64,000 nt of DNA from an uncultured Bifidobacteriaceae bacterium (GTDB lineage: Bacteria; Bacteroidota; Bacteroidia; UKL13-3). The first letter of the stretch is position 1. The number at the start of each line of letters is the position of its first letter. A program made the position numbers and the translations under genes. Under the pieces are notes generated by a model that searched no databases, had not been told where the DNA came from, and saw nothing but the letters and a program-made list of their open reading frames with translations. Shown here one piece after another: positions 15,040 through 36,840 of this stretch. Where the stretch lies: the NCBI GenBank assembly GCA_964392775.1, contig CAYMRD010000010.1, positions 10,834 to 74,833 on the forward strand, written 5' to 3'.

Positions 15040-15150
15040 TGACTCCGAATATTGTCCCCCGCTGCCCCCAACCCTAATGGGTGTTCCGCGCACAAGTATT
15101 TTAGAAAATGAGCGGTTGGCCCCCCTTCGAAGTTGAATCTTCCCGGCAGA
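15040..15150. repeat. Degraded copy of the MITE-like element whose full copy is at 29275-29432
   Basis: ~75 nt (15056-15124) is ~85% identical to 29316-29386, sharing the core gggtgttccgcgcacaagt.ttttagaaa.tg.gcggttgg. Flanking remnants of the terminal-repeat arms are present (ccgaatattgtc ; gttgaatcttcccgg). It lies between convergent genes. Confidence 0.55.
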
Positions 15151-29274: not shown

Positions 29275-29432
29275 ACTGACTATCGGGATATTGTCAATTA
29301 AACTTCTTCCATCCTCCGCAGCCCCTAACCCTAAAGGGTGTTCCGCGCACAAGTCTTTTAGAAAGTGTGCGGTTGGTCCCCGCTAGGGGCAGGCGTGCGC
29401 GAGGGCAAGTTGACAATATCCCGATAGTCAGT
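29275..29432. mobile_element. 158-bp MITE-like non-coding element with perfect 23-bp terminal inverted repeats and an 8-bp target-site duplication
   Basis: TIRs actgactatcgggatattgtcaa (29275-29298) and ttgacaatatcccgatagtcagt (29410-29432). Flanked on both sides by aaacaaaa (29267-29274 and 29433-29440). The internal core is homologous to 15056-15124. No ORF. Confidence 0.6.
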
Positions 29433-29487: not shown

Positions 29488-30960
29488 TTATCGTTTGCTA
29501 TAGTTTGGTGCTTCTTTGGTAATGGTCACATCGTGTGCGTGACTTTCTTTTGAACCCGCAGGAGTGATTTTGATAAACTTCGCTTTTTGCAGCGACTTGA
29601 TATCTTTTGCTCCTACATATCCCATACCTGCACGCAATCCGCCTACAAACTGGTAAATCACTTCTTTTAATTCGCCTTTAAACGGTACAATGCCCACAAT
29701 ACCTTCCGGTACAAGCTTTGCAATTTCATCTTCGGCATCCTGAAAATAACGGTCTTTTGAGCCTTCTTTCATCGCCTCAATCGAACCCATTCCTCGGTAT
29801 GATTTGAACTTACGTCCTTCGTATAAAATAGTTTCTCCCGGTGACTCTTCAGTTCCGGCAAACAAACTTCCGCTCATCACAGTACTTGCTCCGGCAGCTA
29901 ATGCTTTCACCACATCTCCACTGTAACGAATACCACCATCGGCAATAACCGGAATACCTGTTCCTTTTAAGGCTTTAGCGGCTTCGTAAATGGCTGTTAA
30001 CTGTGGAACACCAATACCTGCGATAATACGGGTGGTACAAATTGAACCGGGACCAACGCCTACTTTTACGGCATCCACACCGGCAGCAGCAAGGGCTTTT
30101 GCACCTTCACCTGTTGCAACGTTTCCGGCAATGATATCCAGAGTTGGGAACAATTTACGAAGGCGTTTGATTTCCTTCAATACAAAAGCCGAATGTCCGT
30201 GAGCCGTATCAATTGTAATTACATCCACTCCCGCTTTCACCAATGCTGCAATACGATCCTGCGTTTCGGGTGTAACCCCAACAGCCGCACCTACCAATAA
30301 ACGTCCGTGTTTATCTTTACAGGCATTCGGGTTATCGCGCAGCTTTAAAATATCTTTATAGGTAATCAAACCAATCAGTTTACCTTGTTTGTTTACAACA
30401 GGCAACTTCTCGATTTTGTATTTCTGTAAAATTGATTCTGCTTTTTTAAGGTCGGTACCTTCGGGAGCTGTAATGAGATTTGTTTTCGTCATTACCTCGC
30501 TCACCTTTTTGCTCATTACCTTTTCAAAGCGCAAATCGCGGTTGGTAAGGATTCCTACCAATTTATTTTTATCATCAACAATCGGAATACCACCGATTTT
30601 ATTGTCGCTCATCAGTTTCAACGCTTCCTTTAAGGTAGCATTCACCAATAACGTAACCGGATCGAGAATCATTCCACTTTCACTGCGTTTTACCTTACGC
30701 ACTTCTTCAGCCTGACGCTCGATGCTCATGTTTTTGTGCAACATGCCCACTCCCCCTTGTTGCGCCATGGCAATAGCCAAACGCGACTCGGTAACCGTAT
30801 CCATCGCTGCTGAAAGCATCGGGATATTGATTTTTAGATTACGGGTAAGTTGGGTGGCGGTGCTTACTTCTCGAGGAAGTACTTCTGAAAAAGCCGGGAG
30901 AAGCAATACATCATCAAACGTGAGGCCTTCTCCAAAGAATTTATTTTTATCGTTTATCAT
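29488..30960 (-). CDS. guaB: Inosine-5'-monophosphate dehydrogenase
   Basis: IMPDH catalytic loop [11 protein letters not shown], tandem CBS domains, GGIPIVDD and the ...[19 protein letters not shown]... motifs. Confidence 0.95.
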
Positions 30961-31113: not shown

Positions 31114-31163
31114 TGCGAACGAAAAATGGGTAGTATCTCACTACGTGTGTAAGCAGAAAAACG

Positions 31164-31232
31164 AATAACAGTTTACAGTTTGTTGTGATGGCATTCCTCA
31201 GAATTCTACTCAATAGATTATGAACAGGCTCT
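31164..31232. repeat. Repeat B copy 1 (69 bp; identical to 35505-35573)
   Basis: aataacagtttacagtttgttgtgatggcattcctcagaattctactcaatagattatgaacaggctct is present twice in direct orientation. A looser match extends ~15 nt further 5' (ttgcgaacgaaaaa / ttgcgagcgaaaaa), with a 30-nt indel in copy 1. Confidence 0.9.
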
Positions 31233-32786
31233 TAGGGCAGTTCAGCCCCTCCTTTACCGGTCATCCGATCGTTTACAAGATTCCCTATAAACTTAGCAAA
31301 TGGCTCAAAGTTTTGCTCCACACTTGCACTTTCAAGAGCCTGCATATATTCATCACGTTTTTCGACAGGAATAACAGTCCAAGGATACCCTCCGGAAGCT
31401 AACATCACATTCATCAAAAAGCGTCCCATGCGCCCATTGCCATCCATGTAAGGGTGAATAAATACAAAAATGAAATGCCCAAGGACTACCCTTACTGAGG
31501 CTTCCTGTTCTTCTTCCAACAATTCAAAAAGTATTGGCATAGCGTCTCGCATACCTTCTACATTTAATGGCACATGCTTGGAATTACTTATGTAAACCTG
31601 ATGACTCCGATATCCAGCTAAATCAGACGGCTTTAACAACCCTACTGCTACACTTGGATCAAACAGTTGCCTATACCATCTTGGGTGATCATTCCATACC
31701 CGTTTCCCGGAATTTTCACCTGTAAGAATTGCCTTTATGGAATCTTTAACTACTTGGAACGTTTGCCAATAACCTCTGGCAGCCATTGCGTCTCTTTGTT
31801 TCCTGTCTTCCGCATTTTCTTTCGCGTTCCATTTACCGGAACTTACTTTCGCGATTAATTCAGGTGTTACTTTGTAACGTTCGATGGATAGTGAGTGATA
31901 AGCGTCAAGTCAGATAGATATCATCAATATCTTTCAAAAAAGCGTCATAATCTTTAGGAAGCCCGGGAGCCTTCGGAAAATTAGCAATTACTTTCTCACG
32001 CATCTCCATCCACATCAGACGAATGCGATTTGCATAAGGGGAACGTTCGCGGGAGGATAGCTTAATATTCAACCTAAACTCAAACGGATCTTCTTCACGT
32101 ATATCATAATCCGCTTGTTTGAATGTTTCTATGATTTGATCAGCAATCCTTTCTTGATGAATATTCCGAAAAGCTCCGGCCAGTCGACCAGCCAATGTAG
32201 TGTGTCCATTTTCCAATAACGCAGGCAACAATTCCGAAGCATCCCTAATTAAGGCAAGTGCTGTGCGGGCATCTATTGCATTATGAGTATAAACCGCTCC
32301 TGTACTATAAATAAGTGCAGATTGAAGATTATATATGCGAATGCCTTTATACACCTCCATTTGTTCAACGGGAGAAATATCTGTCTTTAAATTAAACAGT
32401 GATGTATTGTGTGGTAACGGTGTCGGTTTGTTATTTCCTTGCGAAGATCGCACAAGTAACTGATGTGGTACTGCCCAGTTGCCTGCATGAAGGAGCAAAG
32501 ATTGATCAGCGGATAAACACCAGTTATCTCCATATTTACGCTCCAAAAACTGTGCAACAAATTCCCAATATGAGCTATACCAAGCGGTGGTTTCCCCATC
32601 TCTTTCGTCAGGATTTGTAGCAATATACCACCCCTTAGTCACTTGACGCAGAAAGCCCTTTTTTACGAGTAACTGCCTGTGTTTTGCATTCGGTATATCA
32701 TTCGTATGAATGCCCACCCCCCCCTCATCCTGTACATTTTTCAGAAAGGTAAGGGCTTCTGCAAATCGTTCATTAGGTGTGGCCAT
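31232..32786 (-). pseudogene. Fic/Doc (Fido) family protein gene split by a +1 frameshift near 31905-31910 (ORFs 31905-32786 and 31232-31786 plus an in-frame open extension)
   Basis: The downstream part carries the Fido active-site motif HPYMDGNGRMGRF. The upstream 293-aa ORF is the long N-terminal region typical of ~500-aa Fic proteins. The lower reading frame is open from 31909 (LDAYHSLSIERYKVTPELIAKVSSGKWNAKENAEDRKQRDAM...), so a single-nucleotide indel at ctgACTTGAc would fuse them (~517 aa). Confidence 0.7.
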
Positions 32787-32831
32787 AGTCTTATAATTTT
32801 TATAAATAAACCTATCTATCCTTTGCTATTC

Positions 32832-32947
32832 TTAGTAAACACATACGTAGAACTACTAGTAAACACAAACGTACAACTATTAGTAAACATAAGCGTGTTA
32901 TTTTTAGTAAAACTAAACGTGTTACAATTAGTAAACGTATCAATATT
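32832..32947. promoter_or_regulatory. Five tandem 24-bp iteron-like direct repeats (TAGTAAAC...ACGT...) immediately upstream of the Fic start
   Basis: TAGTAAAC recurs at 32833, 32857, 32881, 32905 (TAGTAAAA) and 32929 with exact 24-bp phasing: ttagtaaacacatacgtagaactac / tagtaaacacaaacgtacaactat / tagtaaacataagcgtgttattt / ttagtaaaactaaacgtgttacaa / ttagtaaacgtatcaatat. Confidence 0.7.
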
Positions 32948-33181
32948 AAGCATAATATATTAAGCAACAGCAATTTAAATCAAATTACAACGATTCACCC
33001 CAGAGGATGAAACCTGTTAATTAGCTCCCGCTGCTCATCTATCGAGGTCTGGCGATACCGCGCAGTTGAGGATATCTACTTATGTCCGGCCATAAGACGA
33101 TAAGTTCTTGGTTCTACACAGGAACCAAATATTAGTACTATTAATGACAAAATTCTAATGCTATTCATTACATAAGAATCA

Positions 33182-33361
33182 AAAGTGATGAATGGGACAC
33201 GTAGAAATTATAAAATCAATCAGAACAACCTCTCATACATTTAAAACAAAAAAGATAAGGTTCATTACGCCCTCTCATTTGTCTTTCTTCAACAACAAAC
33301 CTGCTGAAAACAAATGAAATATAAAAACAGAATTCGAATAAGTGATAAATGGTACACTGCC
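33182..33361. repeat. Repeat A copy 1 (180 bp)
   Basis: 100% identical to 35281-35460 by eye. Sharp boundaries; the flanks differ between copies. Internal sub-terminal direct repeats AAGTGATGAATGGGACAC ... AAGTGATAAATGGTACAC. Confidence 0.9.
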
Positions 33362-33520
33362 TATTTTATTGAATTAGAAGTAAAATATGTAGTAAAATAC
33401 ATTTAGTAAAATTTAAACGACAAAGAGAATAATTATGGCTAAATATGTATTTAATTGCATTTATTGAAGAATAAATATATCTTTGCTAGTAGAAATAACT
33501 CATATAATGTATTTAAATAC

Positions 33521-33730
33521 ATGAAAAGTCTAGAATTAGCAGAAATAGTAAAAAGGAGAAGAGAAGAATTAGGAATAACTCAAAAAGATTTAGCAGAAAT
33601 GAGCGGAATTCATTTGCGAAGTATTAGTACAATAGAAAGTGGAGATGCAAACCCAACATTAGAGATTATAAGCCAAATAGCAGATATACTGGGATTAGAA
33701 ATACTATTAAAAGTTAAAGGAATAGAATAA
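33521..33730 (+). CDS. hipB: XRE-family HTH transcriptional regulator (HipB-like antitoxin/repressor component)
   Basis: MKSLELAEIVKRRREELGITQKDLAEMSGIHLRSISTIESGDANPTLEIISQIADILGLEI is a canonical Cro/C1 HTH. It ends 1 nt before the next gene. Confidence 0.8.
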   Translation: MKSLELAEIVKRRREELGITQKDLAEMSGIHLRSISTIESGDANPTLEIISQIADILGLEILLKVKGIE

Positions 33731-33731
33731 T

Positions 33732-34055
33732 ATGAAGCGAATGGCTAATGTATATATCAACAAAGAACTAGCAGGGATCTTGACTCACGAAAATGAATAT
33801 ACATTTCGTTATCAAGATTTATATTATAGTGATTCTAATAAACCAGCGATTAGCTTAACTCTACCGAAATCTAAGCAGGAATATACATCACCAATTCTTT
33901 TTCCATTTTTCTTTAACATGCTCGCGGAAGGAGTAAATCGACAATTGCAAAGTAGAAGATACAGAATTGATGAAACAGATTACTTCGGCTTATTATTGGC
34001 AACAGCTCAATATGATACAATTGGGGCAATCACATTAGAGGAGATTAAAGAATGA
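33732..34055 (+). CDS. hipS: HipS-like protein (stand-alone HipA N-terminal subdomain, 107 aa)
   Basis: MANVYINKELAGILTHENEYTFRYQD... matches the HipA_N / 'couple_hipA' N-subdomain 1. Overlaps the downstream kinase gene by 4 nt (ATGA). Confidence 0.7.
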   Translation: MKRMANVYINKELAGILTHENEYTFRYQDLYYSDSNKPAISLTLPKSKQEYTSPILFPFFFNMLAEGVNRQLQSRRYRIDETDYFGLLLATAQYDTIGAITLEEIKE

Positions 34056-35074
34056 GCACATTAGAAATAAATGTTTGTCCTGGAACGTTAAAAGAAGGTT
34101 TCAATACATATAGTCCAGCTTGTAAAAAGAGGGTCTTTAATGGTCGAGCTGTAAGCCATATTTTACCATTCCAAGCTCCTGACAAGGAAGGTGCGGATCA
34201 GGCTAAGTATCTTGAGAATAGAAAGAGGTTATCTATTTCAGGTGTTCAGGAAAAAATAACCTTATTTCTGGAAAAGAATAAATTTCGGTTCCCAGATGAA
34301 AATGAAGGAGGGCAATATATACTAAAGCCAATCCCAAGAGACTTATTACATGTAAGTCAAGTTCCTGCTAATGAGCATCTGACTATGCAAATTGCTGAGC
34401 AAGTTTTTGATATTCTAACTGCTCCAAATGCTATGATTTTTTTCAATGACTACTTACCAGCATACATTACCAAACGCTTTGATATAAAAGAGGATGGCAC
34501 AAGAAGAAGAAAAGAGGATTTTGCCTCTCTAGCACAAAAAACAGAAGAAAATGCAGGAAAAAATTTTAAGTATGACTATAGCTATCTTGGGGTTGCCGAA
34601 TTGATTAAGAAATATGTCCCTGCATATATCCCACAACTAGAACGTTTTTATACTCTAATTCTATTTAACTATCTTTTTAGTAATGGTGATGCTCACCTAA
34701 AGAACTTTTCACTACTTGAAACAGAGTCTAATGATTTTTTGCTGGCCCCAGCCTACGATTTAGTTTGTACCCGTATACATGTAGACGATGGGGATATGGG
34801 ATTAAAAGAGGGCCTTTACGATGAAGACATTGATCATCCAAGCTATGCAAAGTATGGATTTCATGCCTATGACGATTTCTATGACTTTGGTCTAAAGATT
34901 GGGCTTAAAGAAAGTCGAATACAAAAGATTCTTTTGTCATTTTCATTGAATCAAGAAATTGTTTTGTCCTTAATCGATAGATCATTCCTTAATCCTGAAT
35001 GCAAAGAGAATTATAGAAATCTGTATTTGGATAAACTTAGGCGATTCAAAATGTCAGAATCAGGAAGACTTTAA
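34052..35074 (+). CDS. hipT: HipT-like Ser/Thr kinase toxin (HipA C-terminal kinase domain lacking N-subdomain 1)
   Basis: Gly-rich loop LSISGVQEKITLFL (the SIS-G-V-Q pattern of HipT autophosphorylation serines). Catalytic motif GDAHLKNFSLL (HipA DxHxKNxS). PAYDLVCT activation-loop motif. Confidence 0.75.
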   Translation: MSTLEINVCPGTLKEGFNTYSPACKKRVFNGRAVSHILPFQAPDKEGADQAKYLENRKRLSISGVQEKITLFLEKNKFRFPDENEGGQYILKPIPRDLLHVSQVPANEHLTMQIAEQVFDILTAPNAMIFFNDYLPAYITKRFDIKEDGTRRRKEDFASLAQKTEENAGKNFKYDYSYLGVAELIKKYVPAYIPQLERFYTLILFNYLFSNGDAHLKNFSLLETESNDFLLAPAYDLVCTRIHVDDGDMGLKEGLYDEDIDHPSYAKYGFHAYDDFYDFGLKIGLKESRIQKILLSFSLNQEIVLSLIDRSFLNPECKENYRNLYLDKLRRFKMSESGRL

Positions 35075-35280
35075 TTCTATTAAATTGAAATAAGTCGTGC
35101 TCTATAACTGAGATCTCTATAAAACTTACATGTAAAAAGCATACGATTCTTTGGGTTGTTCATTTTCGCCAAGATATTTCATAATTTCACCAACACGCCT
35201 TGCACAGCCAATAGTGATAGGATATTTATTATCAAACTGTGTGTTATTCCAATTCATTTTAGTCAAACCAAGCACTTCTT

Positions 35281-35460
35281 TAAAGTGATGAATGGGACAC
35301 GTAGAAATTATAAAATCAATCAGAACAACCTCTCATACATTTAAAACAAAAAAGATAAGGTTCATTACGCCCTCTCATTTGTCTTTCTTCAACAACAAAC
35401 CTGCTGAAAACAAATGAAATATAAAAACAGAATTCGAATAAGTGATAAATGGTACACTGC
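35281..35460. repeat. Repeat A copy 2 (180 bp)
   Basis: Identical to copy 1. Lies 44 bp from repeat B copy 2. Confidence 0.9.
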
Positions 35461-35504
35461 CGGAAAAGTGTAGAAGGCTTTGGAAAAATTGCGAGCGAAA
35501 AATA

Positions 35505-35573
35505 AATAACAGTTTACAGTTTGTTGTGATGGCATTCCTCAGAATTCTACTCAATAGATTATGAACAGGCTCT
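35505..35573. repeat. Repeat B copy 2 (69 bp)
   Basis: Identical to 31164-31232. On the minus strand it is translated in-frame after the Rhs-core remnant (EPVHNLLSRILRNAITTNCKLLF). Confidence 0.9.
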
Positions 35574-35576
35574 AAG

Positions 35577-35689
35577 AACCGTCCTAATCTCGGATTATAA
35601 ATTCTGAACCCATAATCTTGTTGATTTCCAGCTCCGGAAACTTCATTATCATTCTCCTTGCCATTGAACCCGAAACGGTGCAACTCCAC
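35577..35689 (-). pseudogene. Orphan remnant of an RHS/YD-repeat core C-terminus (…GFNGKENDNEVSGAGNQQDYGFRIYNPRLGRFL), truncated exactly at the repeat-B junction
   Basis: The peptide matches the end of the RHS repeat-associated core domain (…YGYNGKE.D.E.GL..YGARYYDP.LGRF…). The expected continuation (…DP…NPYxYxxNNP…DPxGL + toxin domain) is absent; instead the frame runs into repeats B2 and A2. Confidence 0.6.
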
Positions 35690-35692
35690 CCA

Positions 35693-36160
35693 CTACCGTC
35701 TTTTTGTTCCTCGTTTAATTCCACTATTCTCAAAATTTTGAATCATTAAACTGTAACATGTTATAACATTTTTGCTTTCGATTGATTCAATTTCAGTGAG
35801 AATATGTTGTAACTTATTTAGACTTTCAAGCAGGCTTTCTTCATTCCCAATAATTGAATAAGTGGCATTCATAGTATCATTTGTCACAATTATTAAATAG
35901 TTATGCCCCCCATGAGATGAACCGTCACCAAAGGAATAAATTGTATTAGGAACAGATGTATAAAACACAGATTGGATTTTGTGAGCAAAATAGGTTTTAT
36001 TTCGAACCAGATCAGCATATCTATTATTGCTATCTTTAACTAAAGAATGCTCAATGATATTTCTAACATAGGCCGGTATATTCTGGGCCATTAATATGTT
36101 ATTGTTGAAATTTAAAAAAGTCACAATAACTAAGCAAAAATTAATTTTAATTATTTTCAT
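35693..36160 (-). CDS. Hypothetical small secreted protein (AT-rich, signal peptide MKIIKINFCLVIVTFLNF)
   Basis: 156 aa, ~30% GC, no recognisable domain. Sits 4 nt upstream of the Rhs-core remnant on the same strand. Confidence 0.4.
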   Translation of the reverse strand: MKIIKINFCLVIVTFLNFNNNILMAQNIPAYVRNIIEHSLVKDSNNRYADLVRNKTYFAHKIQSVFYTSVPNTIYSFGDGSSHGGHNYLIIVTNDTMNATYSIIGNEESLLESLNKLQHILTEIESIESKNVITCYSLMIQNFENSGIKRGTKRR

Positions 36161-36309
36161 TTCATTTGTGTTATGAAAGATCATTATTTTTTTTCAACAT
36201 CGTGAACTTTCGTTCCTTCTTTGTCAACACTTTGATAAAATTTCACTTCATTTTCTGTTGGCTTTTTCTCAGGATCACTTGGAGAGGGCACAACACTCCT
36301 GTTAGATTT

Positions 36310-36345: not shown

Positions 36346-36446
36346 ATACAAGCATCTTCACAGAATTGTTCTTTCCTATTGAACTCGTCATGGATGATAA
36401 ATGAGACATTCCACTTAGGGCAATTAAATATAATTTCTTCTCGCTA

Positions 36447-36560
36447 AAAAAAGATAAGGTTCATTACGCCCTCTCATTTGCCTTTCTCCAACAACAAACC
36501 TGCTGAAAACAAATGAAATATAAAAACAGAATTCGAATAAGTGATAAATGGTACACTGCC
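36447..36560. repeat. Repeat A copy 3 (3'-partial, 114 bp, 2 mismatches)
   Basis: Matches the 3' 114 bp of repeat A (aaaaagataaggttcattacgccctctcatttgCctttctCc...ggtacactgcc) with the same sharp 3' boundary. Lies ~210 bp from the tRNA-fMet 3' end. Confidence 0.85.
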
Positions 36561-36765: not shown

Positions 36766-36768
36766 TTG

Positions 36769-36840
<72 letters not shown>

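Follow-up and report, generated by a model that had tools for sequence, protein, structure and literature searches.

The question raised by this locus is whether three tightly packed genes in a Bacteroidota genome encode a working toxin-antitoxin module of the HipBST family and, if so, which of the characterised Hip systems is the better guide to its toxin, antitoxin and target. The genes lie in a 64,000-nt stretch of DNA, which was analysed as a whole and is referred to here as the window. In the systems of E. coli and Legionella, HipT is neutralised by HipS and not by HipB, which instead binds the promoter (PMC6581861; PMC10627512; PMC10653801). The analysis determined gene content, protein fold and catalytic residues, how far the operon and its upstream palindromes are conserved, and signs of mobility. 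The operon is very probably functional and acquired by horizontal transfer, a type II toxin-antitoxin system of the HipBST family.

Gene content and layout of the operon

Three ORFs on the forward strand make up the operon. The first, hipB (33521..33730), encodes a 69-aa XRE/Cro-type HTH protein presumed to be an autorepressor. It is followed by hipS (33732..34055), encoding a 107-aa stand-alone HipA N-subdomain-1 that is the presumed antitoxin, and by hipT (34052..35074), encoding the presumed toxin, a 340-aa HipA-type Ser/Thr kinase without N-subdomain 1. The close packing described in the initial annotation was exact to the base. The TAA stop codon of hipB ends at 33730 and the ATG of hipS starts from 33732, leaving a 1-nt gap, and the ATGA at 34052-34055 is common to the hipS stop and the hipT start (4-nt overlap).

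HMM searches matched HipB to HTH_3 (2e-16), HipS to Couple_hipA (1e-19) and TIGR03071 (9e-27), and HipT to HipA_C (2e-36). All four matches exceeded the curated cut-offs and are therefore not due to chance. HipB also matched TIGR03070 couple_hipB (2e-16), but under the cut-off of that model. The HMMs, the matches to solved structures and the AlphaFold model agreed on a tripartite hipB-hipS-hipT module with a stand-alone HipS and an N-truncated kinase, as had been annotated.

The GC content of the operon, noted earlier as low, was measured at 34.1% compared to 40-42% in the flanks, and its GC3 was 27% compared to 38-44% for housekeeping genes nearby. Assignment of the host to the Bacteroidota was supported by the T9SS type A and type B sorting domains present in two proteins of the window.

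Conservation and spread of the family

To assess conservation, 80 species-representative genome loci were fetched, and the 78 with complete hipS and hipT were used. In this set, hipS was directly upstream of hipT in 78/78 loci and hipB directly upstream of hipS in 77/78, with a 4-nt overlap at most hipS-hipT junctions. All three ORFs of the window were full length compared with their relatives. Identical proteins were found only in one 110-kb NCBI contig and in Logan assemblies, which represent independent samples, and among the matches listed by the genome contig search there was no locus with >58% identity. The contig L089 carries a hipS-hipT pair at 91% nt identity, both genes intact, with no hipB upstream. 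Chimeric assembly is possible for this contig, and the HTH regulator might come from a separate hipBA pair located upstream.

Homologs number more than 8000. Family members were located on Bacteroidota chromosomes, on plasmids and on a few phage contigs, and copies were found on five IMG/VR contigs. All three genes are already annotated in RefSeq on Bacteroidota plasmids, including small plasmids, and according to a 2023 mBio paper homologs of the Legionella type occur widely across the Fibrobacterota-Chlorobiota-Bacteroidota (FCB) superphylum. A HipBST system in this phylum is thus not unexpected. Since the family is very large and already described across the Bacteroidota, the operon is a real but ordinary find. 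The earlier description of a functionally untested member did agree with the literature searched, in which no experimental data on members of the Bacteroidota hipBST clade were found.

Sequence and fold of the kinase HipT

The HipA_C match spanned residues 60-294 of HipT, and no match to Couple_hipA was found within the 340 aa. The kinase motifs that had been picked out by eye were placed at residues 60-68 (LSISGVQEK), 211-220 (NGDAHLKNFS) and 232-237 (APAYDL). In the alignment, the P-loop serines S61 and S63, the catalytic D213, the Mg-binding D236 and K92 in ILKP were all conserved. D213 corresponds to D197 of the Legionella pneumophila protein, HipT(Lp), and to D210 of the E. coli protein, HipT(Ec); D236 corresponds to D219 and D233, respectively, and both residues were invariant across the HipT relatives. 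All four Hip kinase motifs were intact, namely the Gly-rich loop with its phospho-acceptor Ser, the activation loop, the catalytic Asp and the Mg-binding Asp. The double-serine (SIS) form of the Gly-rich loop was present in 74/78 relatives.

The AF2 model of HipT, calculated without HipS, had a pLDDT of 82.9 and a pTM of 0.86, with a low-confidence loop at approximately residues 242-262. The top Foldseek matches of this model were 7wcf, 7vkc and 7ab5 (target-normalised TM 0.76-0.78), and TM values against the solved HipT structures were 0.72-0.78. Both the HipA_C match and these Foldseek matches to HipT structures confirmed that the 340-aa protein has the kinase fold. With the HipT family profile, HipT(Lp) scored 141 bits, HipT(Ec) 98 and HipA 42-47. 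Sequence identity with the two characterised HipTs was only 25-32%, with means of 32% (Lp) and 26% (Ec).

Six residues of HipT(Lp) are known at which mutation weakens HipS binding (PMC9325769). Four of the six were identical in HipT of the window: D144, E155, K173 and K217 (Lp D133, E144, K157 and K201), which were also invariant or nearly so in the family. A fifth showed a conservative change, from R154 to K170. By analogy with its homologs, HipT is predicted to be toxic, and its target would most likely be an aminoacyl-tRNA synthetase.

HipS and the wedge position

The 107-aa protein had been proposed to resemble the N-subdomain of HipA. Besides its Couple_hipA and TIGR03071 matches, phmmer aligned it to HipA residues 7-103 with an E-value of about 1.6e-4, which bears the proposal out. 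Against solved proteins, the phmmer matches were HipS(Lp) at 1.8e-15 (60 bits), HipS(Ec) at 5e-9 (39.5 bits) and HI_0666 at 8e-8. The residue equivalent to Glu63 was invariant in the 78 relatives (78/78). The position of E. coli HipS Trp65 is occupied by Val68 in HipS of the window, and across the 78 relatives it was V in 36, A in 17, S in 12, T in 6 and W in none. Because this Trp is missing, the neutralisation contact must differ from the one tested in E. coli.

These data bear on the possibility that the module works exactly as in E. coli O127, with HipT phosphorylating TrpS and HipS inserting a bulky side chain as a wedge in the P-loop pocket. The three-gene order and the S-I-S double-serine P-loop are the same as those of the E. 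coli system, and the HipTs of three Gammaproteobacteria all target TrpS (PMC6581861, PMC8262856). However, Val68 replaces Trp65, with Trp in 0/78 relatives; HipT and HipS both score higher against Legionella, where the toxicity of HipT is not relieved by TrpS or GltX (PMC10653801); and the target specificity of Hip kinases differs even between HipA paralogs. Full equivalence to the E. coli system is considered possible but doubtful. TrpS, named in the initial annotation as the target in E. coli, cannot be assumed here, as the Legionella relative does not use it.

By analogy with the homologs, HipS is predicted to be the antitoxin. The hipS-hipT pair without hipB on L089 is as expected if HipS has this role. 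In the classical HipBA-like arrangement, HipB would be the real antitoxin and HipS only a structural piece of a split kinase, needed for activity. Such an arrangement could account for the retention of HipB in 77/78 loci, it has a precedent in HipBA, where the HTH protein is the antitoxin, and HipS does match a domain that lies within the active HipA enzyme. It is nevertheless very improbable: HipT is toxic by itself in each of the two characterised HipBST systems, where HipS and not HipB neutralises it, the HipT described here keeps a complete kinase core and was modelled confidently without HipS, and the 91%-identical pair lacks an upstream hipB.

HipB, candidate operators and promoter

Only two perfect copies of the palindrome ATGTA-N6-TACAT were found in the 64-kb window, and both of these, together with one copy carrying a single mismatch, were located at most 136 nt upstream of hipB. 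They are regarded as candidate HipB operators, all given on the forward strand. O3 (ATGTAGTAAAATACAT, 33387..33402) is perfect and O2 (ATGTATTTAATTGCAT, 33445..33460) has one mismatch. O1 (ATGTATTTAAATACAT, 33507..33522) is a perfect 16-nt palindrome that overlaps the hipB start codon. The consensus TAnnTTTG is that of the -7 box of Bacteroides promoters, and a candidate box of this type (TATCTTTG) was identified at 33478..33485 on the same strand.

The palindromes and the TAnnTTTG box were kept in four loci that have nothing else in common outside the operon. O1 was kept as RYGTAKTWWAATACATG in the relatives L083, L086 and L088, and TAnnTTTG occupied the same alignment position in these three and in the window. 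O2 was inside a block (AAATATGYAT...) kept in four loci with unrelated neighbourhoods, and L086 had a similar palindrome at the same distance as O3 (-135). The operator sequence was kept only by relatives at 73-76% nt identity and was found in 0/75 of the more distant hipBST loci, as expected if operators co-evolve with HipB. By analogy with its homologs, HipB would bind these candidate operators as a repressor.

The low-GC island and its repeats

The closest hipBST relatives sit in unrelated neighbourhoods. Together with the low GC content, the conserved operator/promoter block and the copies on Bacteroidota plasmids and IMG/VR contigs, this backed the earlier suggestion that the operon looks horizontally acquired.

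Two copies of a 180-nt direct repeat, D1, flank the operon at 33182..33361 and 35282..35461. The initial annotation had remarked on these repeats, which are real and 100% identical, but they proved to be a trait of this genome and not of the hipBST family. Flanking direct repeats were found at 4/55 hipBST loci compared to 15/535 control positions, a difference that was not significant (p = 0.09). The stretch with homology to other hipBST loci (33440-35076) does not include the left D1 copy. A third copy, at 36381-36560, is 73% identical overall with a core of approximately 114 nt at 98%. In two samples, short-read contigs (L001 and L002) break off 30 nt inside the D1 repeats. An exact 30-mer of D1 gave no match in JGI metagenomes, and probes for D1 and for an 80-nt repeat, D2, gave none in the 93 fetched loci.

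Two candidate explanations were not borne out. That D1 is an integron site or a structured RNA was rejected: it folded no better than shuffled sequence (z 0.65 and 0.21 for the two strands), and Rfam found only a tRNA-Met over the island. Classical integration at this tRNA-Met found no support, as no tRNA fragment of at least 11 nt was duplicated in the island. Read on the minus strand beside tRNA-Met, the order is D1'-163-aa ORF and Rhs core fragment-D2, then D1-small ORF and hipBST, then D1-Fic-D2, and the cargo matched other genomes only inside the repeats (hipBST 33440-35076, Fic 31231-33076). It is conceivable, though improbable, that hipBST is one unit of a small repeat-delimited cassette array beside tRNA-Met. 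If it were, genome-specific D1 (180-nt) and D2 (80-nt) linkers would allow toxin-type cassettes to be captured or exchanged, and the mechanism would be distinct both from that of integrons (no hairpin) and from classical tRNA-att integration.

The contents of the island also bear on what the module is for. Besides hipBST, it holds a fragment of an Rhs core and a Fic gene resembling SoFic (PADLOC SoFic 6e-20), and these could suggest a defence-island cassette for abortive infection, in which phage infection frees HipT to turn translation off, in place of a persistence or addiction module. HipT and HipS weakly match the candidate defence system PDC-M03A/B (5e-8 and 4e-5; PADLOC), the hipBST of L088 adjoins AbiEii and a hipBA pair, and copies occur on the five IMG/VR contigs. 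However, PADLOC gave no strong defence-system assignment, its weak matches pointing to another type of Hip architecture; the Fic gene is interrupted and falls into two ORFs; there is no evident phage-sensing component; the copies on small plasmids fit plain plasmid addiction equally well; and no defence phenotype of HipBST is reported in the literature searched. An anti-phage role is unlikely on this evidence.

The state of the neighbours could instead mean that the operon is itself a decaying, non-functional remnant within a junk island. The Fic gene is split into ORFs of 293 aa and 184 aa, compared to a family length of 518 aa, and the Rhs core is a 37-aa fragment. Against this, the three hip ORFs are full length, all checked catalytic and family-invariant residues are intact, the promoter/operator block is conserved and the identical protein was recovered from independent samples, so that decay appears highly unlikely.

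Proposed working of the module

HipT is postulated to be a HipA-fold Ser/Thr kinase which, when free, would phosphorylate an essential translation factor, stopping growth. HipS, as a detached HipA N-subdomain-1, would bind HipT beside the Gly-rich (P) loop and keep that loop ejected, in a conformation unable to bind ATP; because it would lock the loop in this way, HipS would be the antitoxin. As the wedge position of HipS is Val and not Trp, neutralisation probably follows the Trp-independent Legionella mode. Autophosphorylation of either P-loop serine probably tunes HipT activity as in E. coli HipT, and this is proposed because HipT carries the S-I-S P-loop. The minimal HTH protein HipB may join the complex and repress the operon via the three ATGTA-N6-TACAT palindromes that bracket the Bacteroidota-type promoter. 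Translation of hipB, hipS and hipT would be coupled by the 1-nt gap and the ATGA overlap.

The clade combines an E. coli-type S-I-S P-loop with a Legionella-type Trp-less HipS, and because of these mixed features a clade representative would make a sensible third system. Conceivably, though with low probability, the clade even represents a HipBST type of its own, the third by function, with double-serine regulation, Trp-independent neutralisation and a non-TrpS target. A third system would bear on how the P-loop is ejected without a Trp wedge and on the substrates of non-TrpS HipT kinases. The conserved operator/promoter block is in addition a ready fragment for HipB autoregulation at a Bacteroidota-type promoter. 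The value of the locus is otherwise limited to one more intact HipBST, from a phylum for which no experimentally tested member was found in the literature searched.

Comparison with known Hip systems

In the Legionella pneumophila HipBST (Lpg2368-2370; PDB 7VKB, 7WCF, 8EZR) the gene order is likewise hipB-hipS-hipT, with genes that overlap, and HipT (141 bits) and HipS (1.8e-15) both find their best sequence match in this system. The wedge position is small and aliphatic in both systems, Ile65 in HipS(Lp) and Val68 here. The two differ in the P-loop, where HipT(Lp) has just one serine (SVQ) in place of S-I-S; SVQ/SIQ is kept across Legionella homologs according to the paper that surveyed the Legionella HipBST. 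HipT here is also longer, at 340 aa with extra segments compared to 312 aa, and the identity is about 29-32%. A published tree places FCB-superphylum homologs in the HipBST_Lp subclade, and the distance-based quartet bootstraps calculated here with HipA as outgroup (54/148/98) singled out no sister group among Lp and Ec.

The E. coli O127:H6 HipBST (PDB 7AB3-7AB5) resembles the present operon in its tripartite architecture, in the length of its HipT (about 340 aa), in having a Gly-rich loop with the S-I-S double autophosphorylation motif and in the fold of HipT (TM 0.72-0.76). It differs in its lower scores (HipT 98 bits, HipS 5e-9) and in its essential HipS Trp65, absent here. The HipB described here is a minimal 69-aa HTH protein. 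With HipT and HipS both scoring higher against Legionella, E. coli O127 was not retained as the closest model.

The HipBA systems of E. coli K-12 and Shewanella oneidensis have the kinase fold and catalytic motifs in common with the operon. Their first gene likewise encodes an HTH protein and is preceded by palindromic operators, and HipS is homologous to HipA N-subdomain 1. In contrast to HipBA, the kinase is split over two genes here, the match is much weaker (42-47 bits) and no antitoxin role is expected of the HTH protein. Judged by sequence, the closest solved relatives are best ranked as Legionella HipT/HipS, followed by E. coli O127 HipT/HipS and then HipA.

The hipBST operon and its products

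Three plus-strand ORFs were found at the positions given in the initial annotation, namely hipB (69 aa, 33521-33730), hipS (107 aa, 33732-34055) and hipT (340 aa, 34052-35074), and their order, the 1-nt spacing between hipB and hipS and the ATGA overlap between hipS and hipT were also as described. The products matched Pfam HTH_3 (2e-16), Couple_hipA (1e-19) and HipA_C (2e-36), respectively, all well over the Pfam gathering score. HipS additionally matched NCBIfam TIGR03071 (9e-27), and HipB matched TIGR03070 "couple_hipB" under the cut-off. The reported motifs SISGVQEK, DAHLKNFS and PAYDL were all located in HipT, within LSISGVQEK (residues 60-68), NGDAHLKNFS (211-220) and APAYDL (232-237). 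The initial observation was therefore confirmed by ORF positions, domain matches and motifs, and the arrangement cannot be due to chance.

Against all PDB chain sequences, the best match to HipT was Legionella pneumophila HipT (HipT(Lp), 1.3e-20), followed by E. coli O127 HipT (HipT(Ec), 7e-16), with Shewanella and E. coli HipA ranking after both. A family profile of 29 members gave the same ranking more sharply, HipT(Lp) scoring 141 bits, HipT(Ec) 98 and HipA 42-47. The eleven best PDB fold matches to the AlphaFold2 model of HipT (mean pLDDT 82.9, pTM 0.86) were Legionella and E. coli HipT structures with target-normalised TM of 0.72-0.83 (0.76-0.78 for the top three, 7wcf, 7vkc and 7ab5), followed by HipA and H. 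pylori CtkA. The kinase fold proposed for the 340-aa protein was thus upheld by both the HipA_C and the fold matches. Residues D213 (catalytic Asp) and D236 (Mg-binding Asp), the lysine of ILKP and the two serines of the P-loop correspond to functional residues of HipT(Lp)/HipT(Ec) and were invariant in the alignment of the window HipT's family.

For HipS, the PDB matches were HipS(Lp) (1.8e-15), HipS(Ec) (5e-9), Haemophilus HI_0666 (8e-8) and then HipA residues 7-103. The HipS and HipA matches, together with Couple_hipA and TIGR03071, supported the suggested similarity of the 107-aa protein to the HipA N-terminus. The HipBST architecture was correctly called, and the operon is a real HipBST-type toxin-antitoxin cassette with all three genes intact; its toxin and antitoxin roles are predicted from homologs.

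Distribution of the family

A word-indexed search returned at least 8000 HipT homologs, all at E <= 1e-5. The best 120 of these were mostly ~340 aa, and the named entries among those 120 were from Bacteroidota and Balneolota and annotated as HipA-family toxins. When the representatives of 50%-identity clusters were searched exhaustively, 166 clusters were found at E <= 1e-30, and a scan of species-representative genomes gave at least 486 loci. Eighty loci were fetched, from Cytophagales, Chitinophagales, Saprospiraceae, Bacteroidales, Flavobacteriales, Balneolales, Ignavibacteriota and others, and in 78 of them hipS and hipT were both complete. All 78 had a HipS homolog directly upstream of HipT, most commonly with a 4-nt overlap, and an HTH homolog lay upstream of HipS in 77, the single exception being at a contig end.

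The trio was also present on plasmids of cultured Bacteroidota (Chondrinema, Flammeovirga, Runella, Fulvitalea, Bacteroides thetaiotaomicron and Parabacteroides), where RefSeq labels the products as HTH, HipA N-terminal domain and HipA domain proteins, and on five IMG/VR contigs (41-48% identity); two more IMG/VR contigs gave partial matches only (34%). The rarity implied by the initial annotation was not borne out. A 2023 mBio paper describes Legionella-type HipBST homologs as widespread in the Fibrobacterota-Chlorobiota-Bacteroidota superphylum. Finding a HipBST in Bacteroidota is thus to be expected, and the window cassette adds one member to a widespread family that had already been described and surveyed. 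No paper testing a Bacteroidota member was found in the literature searched.

Three close HipT relatives of 540-545 aa (P0097, P0108 and P0117; 57-58% identity over residues 1-338) were extended at the C-terminus by ~200 aa that matched no Pfam family, and a fourth (P0190, 471 aa) had a weak GNAT-like tail.

Candidate promoter and operators

Only two perfect ATGTA-N6-TACAT palindromes were present in the 64-kb window, both within 136 nt upstream of hipB. Including a third with one mismatch, candidate operators start at 33387, 33445 and 33507; the chance expectation for up to one mismatch was 3.6 matches in the whole window. Despite their unrelated neighbourhoods, the closest relatives (73-76% nt identity) could be aligned over the last ~80 nt upstream of hipB. 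The conserved blocks were the two proximal palindromes and, between them, a TAnnTTTG box (33478-33485), a candidate promoter element that matches the Bacteroides -7 consensus. In one relative (L086), a further palindrome was as far from hipB as the distal one is in the window. The palindrome was found in none of 75 more distant relatives, as expected for operators co-evolving with their repressor. The cassette is predicted to carry its own conserved promoter/operator region, and we infer that HipB would autorepress the operon, with candidate sites over the -33 region and over the start codon.

Probable horizontal acquisition and genomic context

The operon (GC 34.1%, GC3 27%, compared to a GC3 of 38-44% for guaB, era and der) is part of a low-GC region of ~5.8 kb, bounded by guaB (29488-30960) on one side and by the minus-strand tRNA-Met gene (36768-36840) on the other. 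Other hipBST loci were homologous only over 33440-35076, from promoter to stop codon, and therefore the three genes and their own control region move as a block. The low GC noted initially was substantiated, and with relatives in unrelated neighbourhoods the cassette looks horizontally acquired, as had been proposed.

One metagenomic locus (L089, 1-3919; JGI 3300050712, contig Ga0502749_005769) carried hipS-hipT at 91% nt identity to the window's and no hipB, the homology beginning ~11-15 nt before the hipS ATG. This is consistent with HipS rather than HipB making hipT tolerable, although the contig may be an assembly chimera. Upstream on this contig, a separate HTH and 425-aa HipA pair was flanked by two repeat copies (87% identical, ~106-140 nt) that look like the 3' end of mnmE (...FSKFCIGK); here, too, a Hip cassette, of a different kind, thus sits between direct repeats of the site into which it inserted. 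In a close relative (L088, 8406-12345), an AbiEii/DUF6088 pair and a classical hipBA pair were both no more than 5 kb away from hipBST; hipBA near hipBST in Bacteroides is described in a 2023 mBio paper.

The 180-nt repeats (D1; 33182-33361 and 35282-35461) reported to flank the operon are real and 100% identical, and a third copy, D1' (36381-36560), has a ~114-nt core at 98%; however, flanking repeats were not significantly enriched around hipBST loci elsewhere. An 80-nt repeat (D2; 31156-31235 and 35497-35576, 96% identical) comes after the stop codon of Fic and cuts short an Rhs core-end fragment. In minus-strand order, the island consists of D1'-[163-aa ORF + Rhs fragment]-D2, followed by D1-[small ORF + hipBST] and lastly D1-[Fic]-D2. 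Between guaB and tRNA-Met, the repeats delimit these three cargo blocks, which resemble other genomes solely within the repeat boundaries. D1 showed no significant fold or hairpin and no Rfam match, it was absent from the metagenome collection and the fetched loci, and no duplicated tRNA fragment was found in the island. The repeats may be no more than a local repeat used in recombination. Short-read assemblies break at these repeats.

The Fic-domain gene (SoFic-like PADLOC match) is in two pieces (minus-strand ORFs of 293 aa, 31905-32786, and 184 aa, 31232-31786). Both fall in one 90%-identity cluster with intact members of 518 aa, and therefore the gene is probably a pseudogene here; an intact version (86% nt identity) occurs in four loci (L090-L093) in unrelated contexts. 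The Rhs core-domain fragment (35577-35689, minus strand; TIGR03696 positions 16-48, E = 2.6e-5; ...DYGFRIYNPRLGRFL) is an orphan cut by D2, and is preceded by the 163-aa ORF (35693-36184), which is hydrophobic over a stretch at its N-terminus and matched no family.

Overlapping Leu/Val/Asn-rich ORFs on both strands of 32800-32975 (e.g. ...LLVNTNVQLLVNISVLFLV...) point to a possible short tandem repeat in the DNA upstream of Fic. Far from the island, a GC-rich, intergenic-looking 70-nt direct repeat (89% identical), beginning TCCCCCGCTGCCCC..., was found at 15055-15124 and 29312-29381.

Comparison with the E. coli and Legionella systems

HipBST was defined in E. coli O127, where TrpS is the phosphorylation target of HipT, the antitoxin role belongs to HipS, and HipB carries the HTH and augments neutralisation (PMC6581861, PMC8262856). 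In the E. coli structure, HipS Trp65 is essential and HipT has the dual autophosphorylation motif S57-I-S59 (PMC10627512). Legionella HipS neutralises HipT by ejecting the P-loop or converting it from loop to helix (PMC9325769); neutralisation there proceeds without the Trp, the P-loop has a single serine, and neither TrpS nor GltX relieves HipT toxicity (PMC10653801 and its preprint).

In window HipS, the residue aligned with Trp65 of HipS(Ec) is Val68. Of 78 relatives, 71 had V, A, S or T at this position and none had W. The Glu63-equivalent was invariant. Since Val68 replaces the Trp placed in the HipT P-loop pocket and Legionella toxicity is unrelieved by TrpS, importing the E. coli O127 mechanism (TrpS as the target and, by implication, the Trp wedge), as the initial annotation did, is not justified. 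The S-I-S P-loop of window HipT is shared with HipT(Ec) and 74/78 relatives, in contrast to the SVQ of HipT(Lp).

Identity was ~29-32% to HipT(Lp) and ~25% to HipT(Ec). Of the six HipT(Lp) residues at which mutation weakens HipS binding, four were identical in window HipT (D144, E155, K173 and K217) and one was conservative. With E. coli K-12 HipA as the outgroup, a distance-based quartet test resolved no branching order, and the placement closest to Legionella is based on the scores and a published tree rather than on this phylogeny. The pairing of a HipS that lacks the Trp with a double-serine HipT, of which no discussion was met in the portions of the literature available, is a small new descriptive point that sets the cassette beside Legionella in its antitoxin and E. 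coli O127 in its P-loop.
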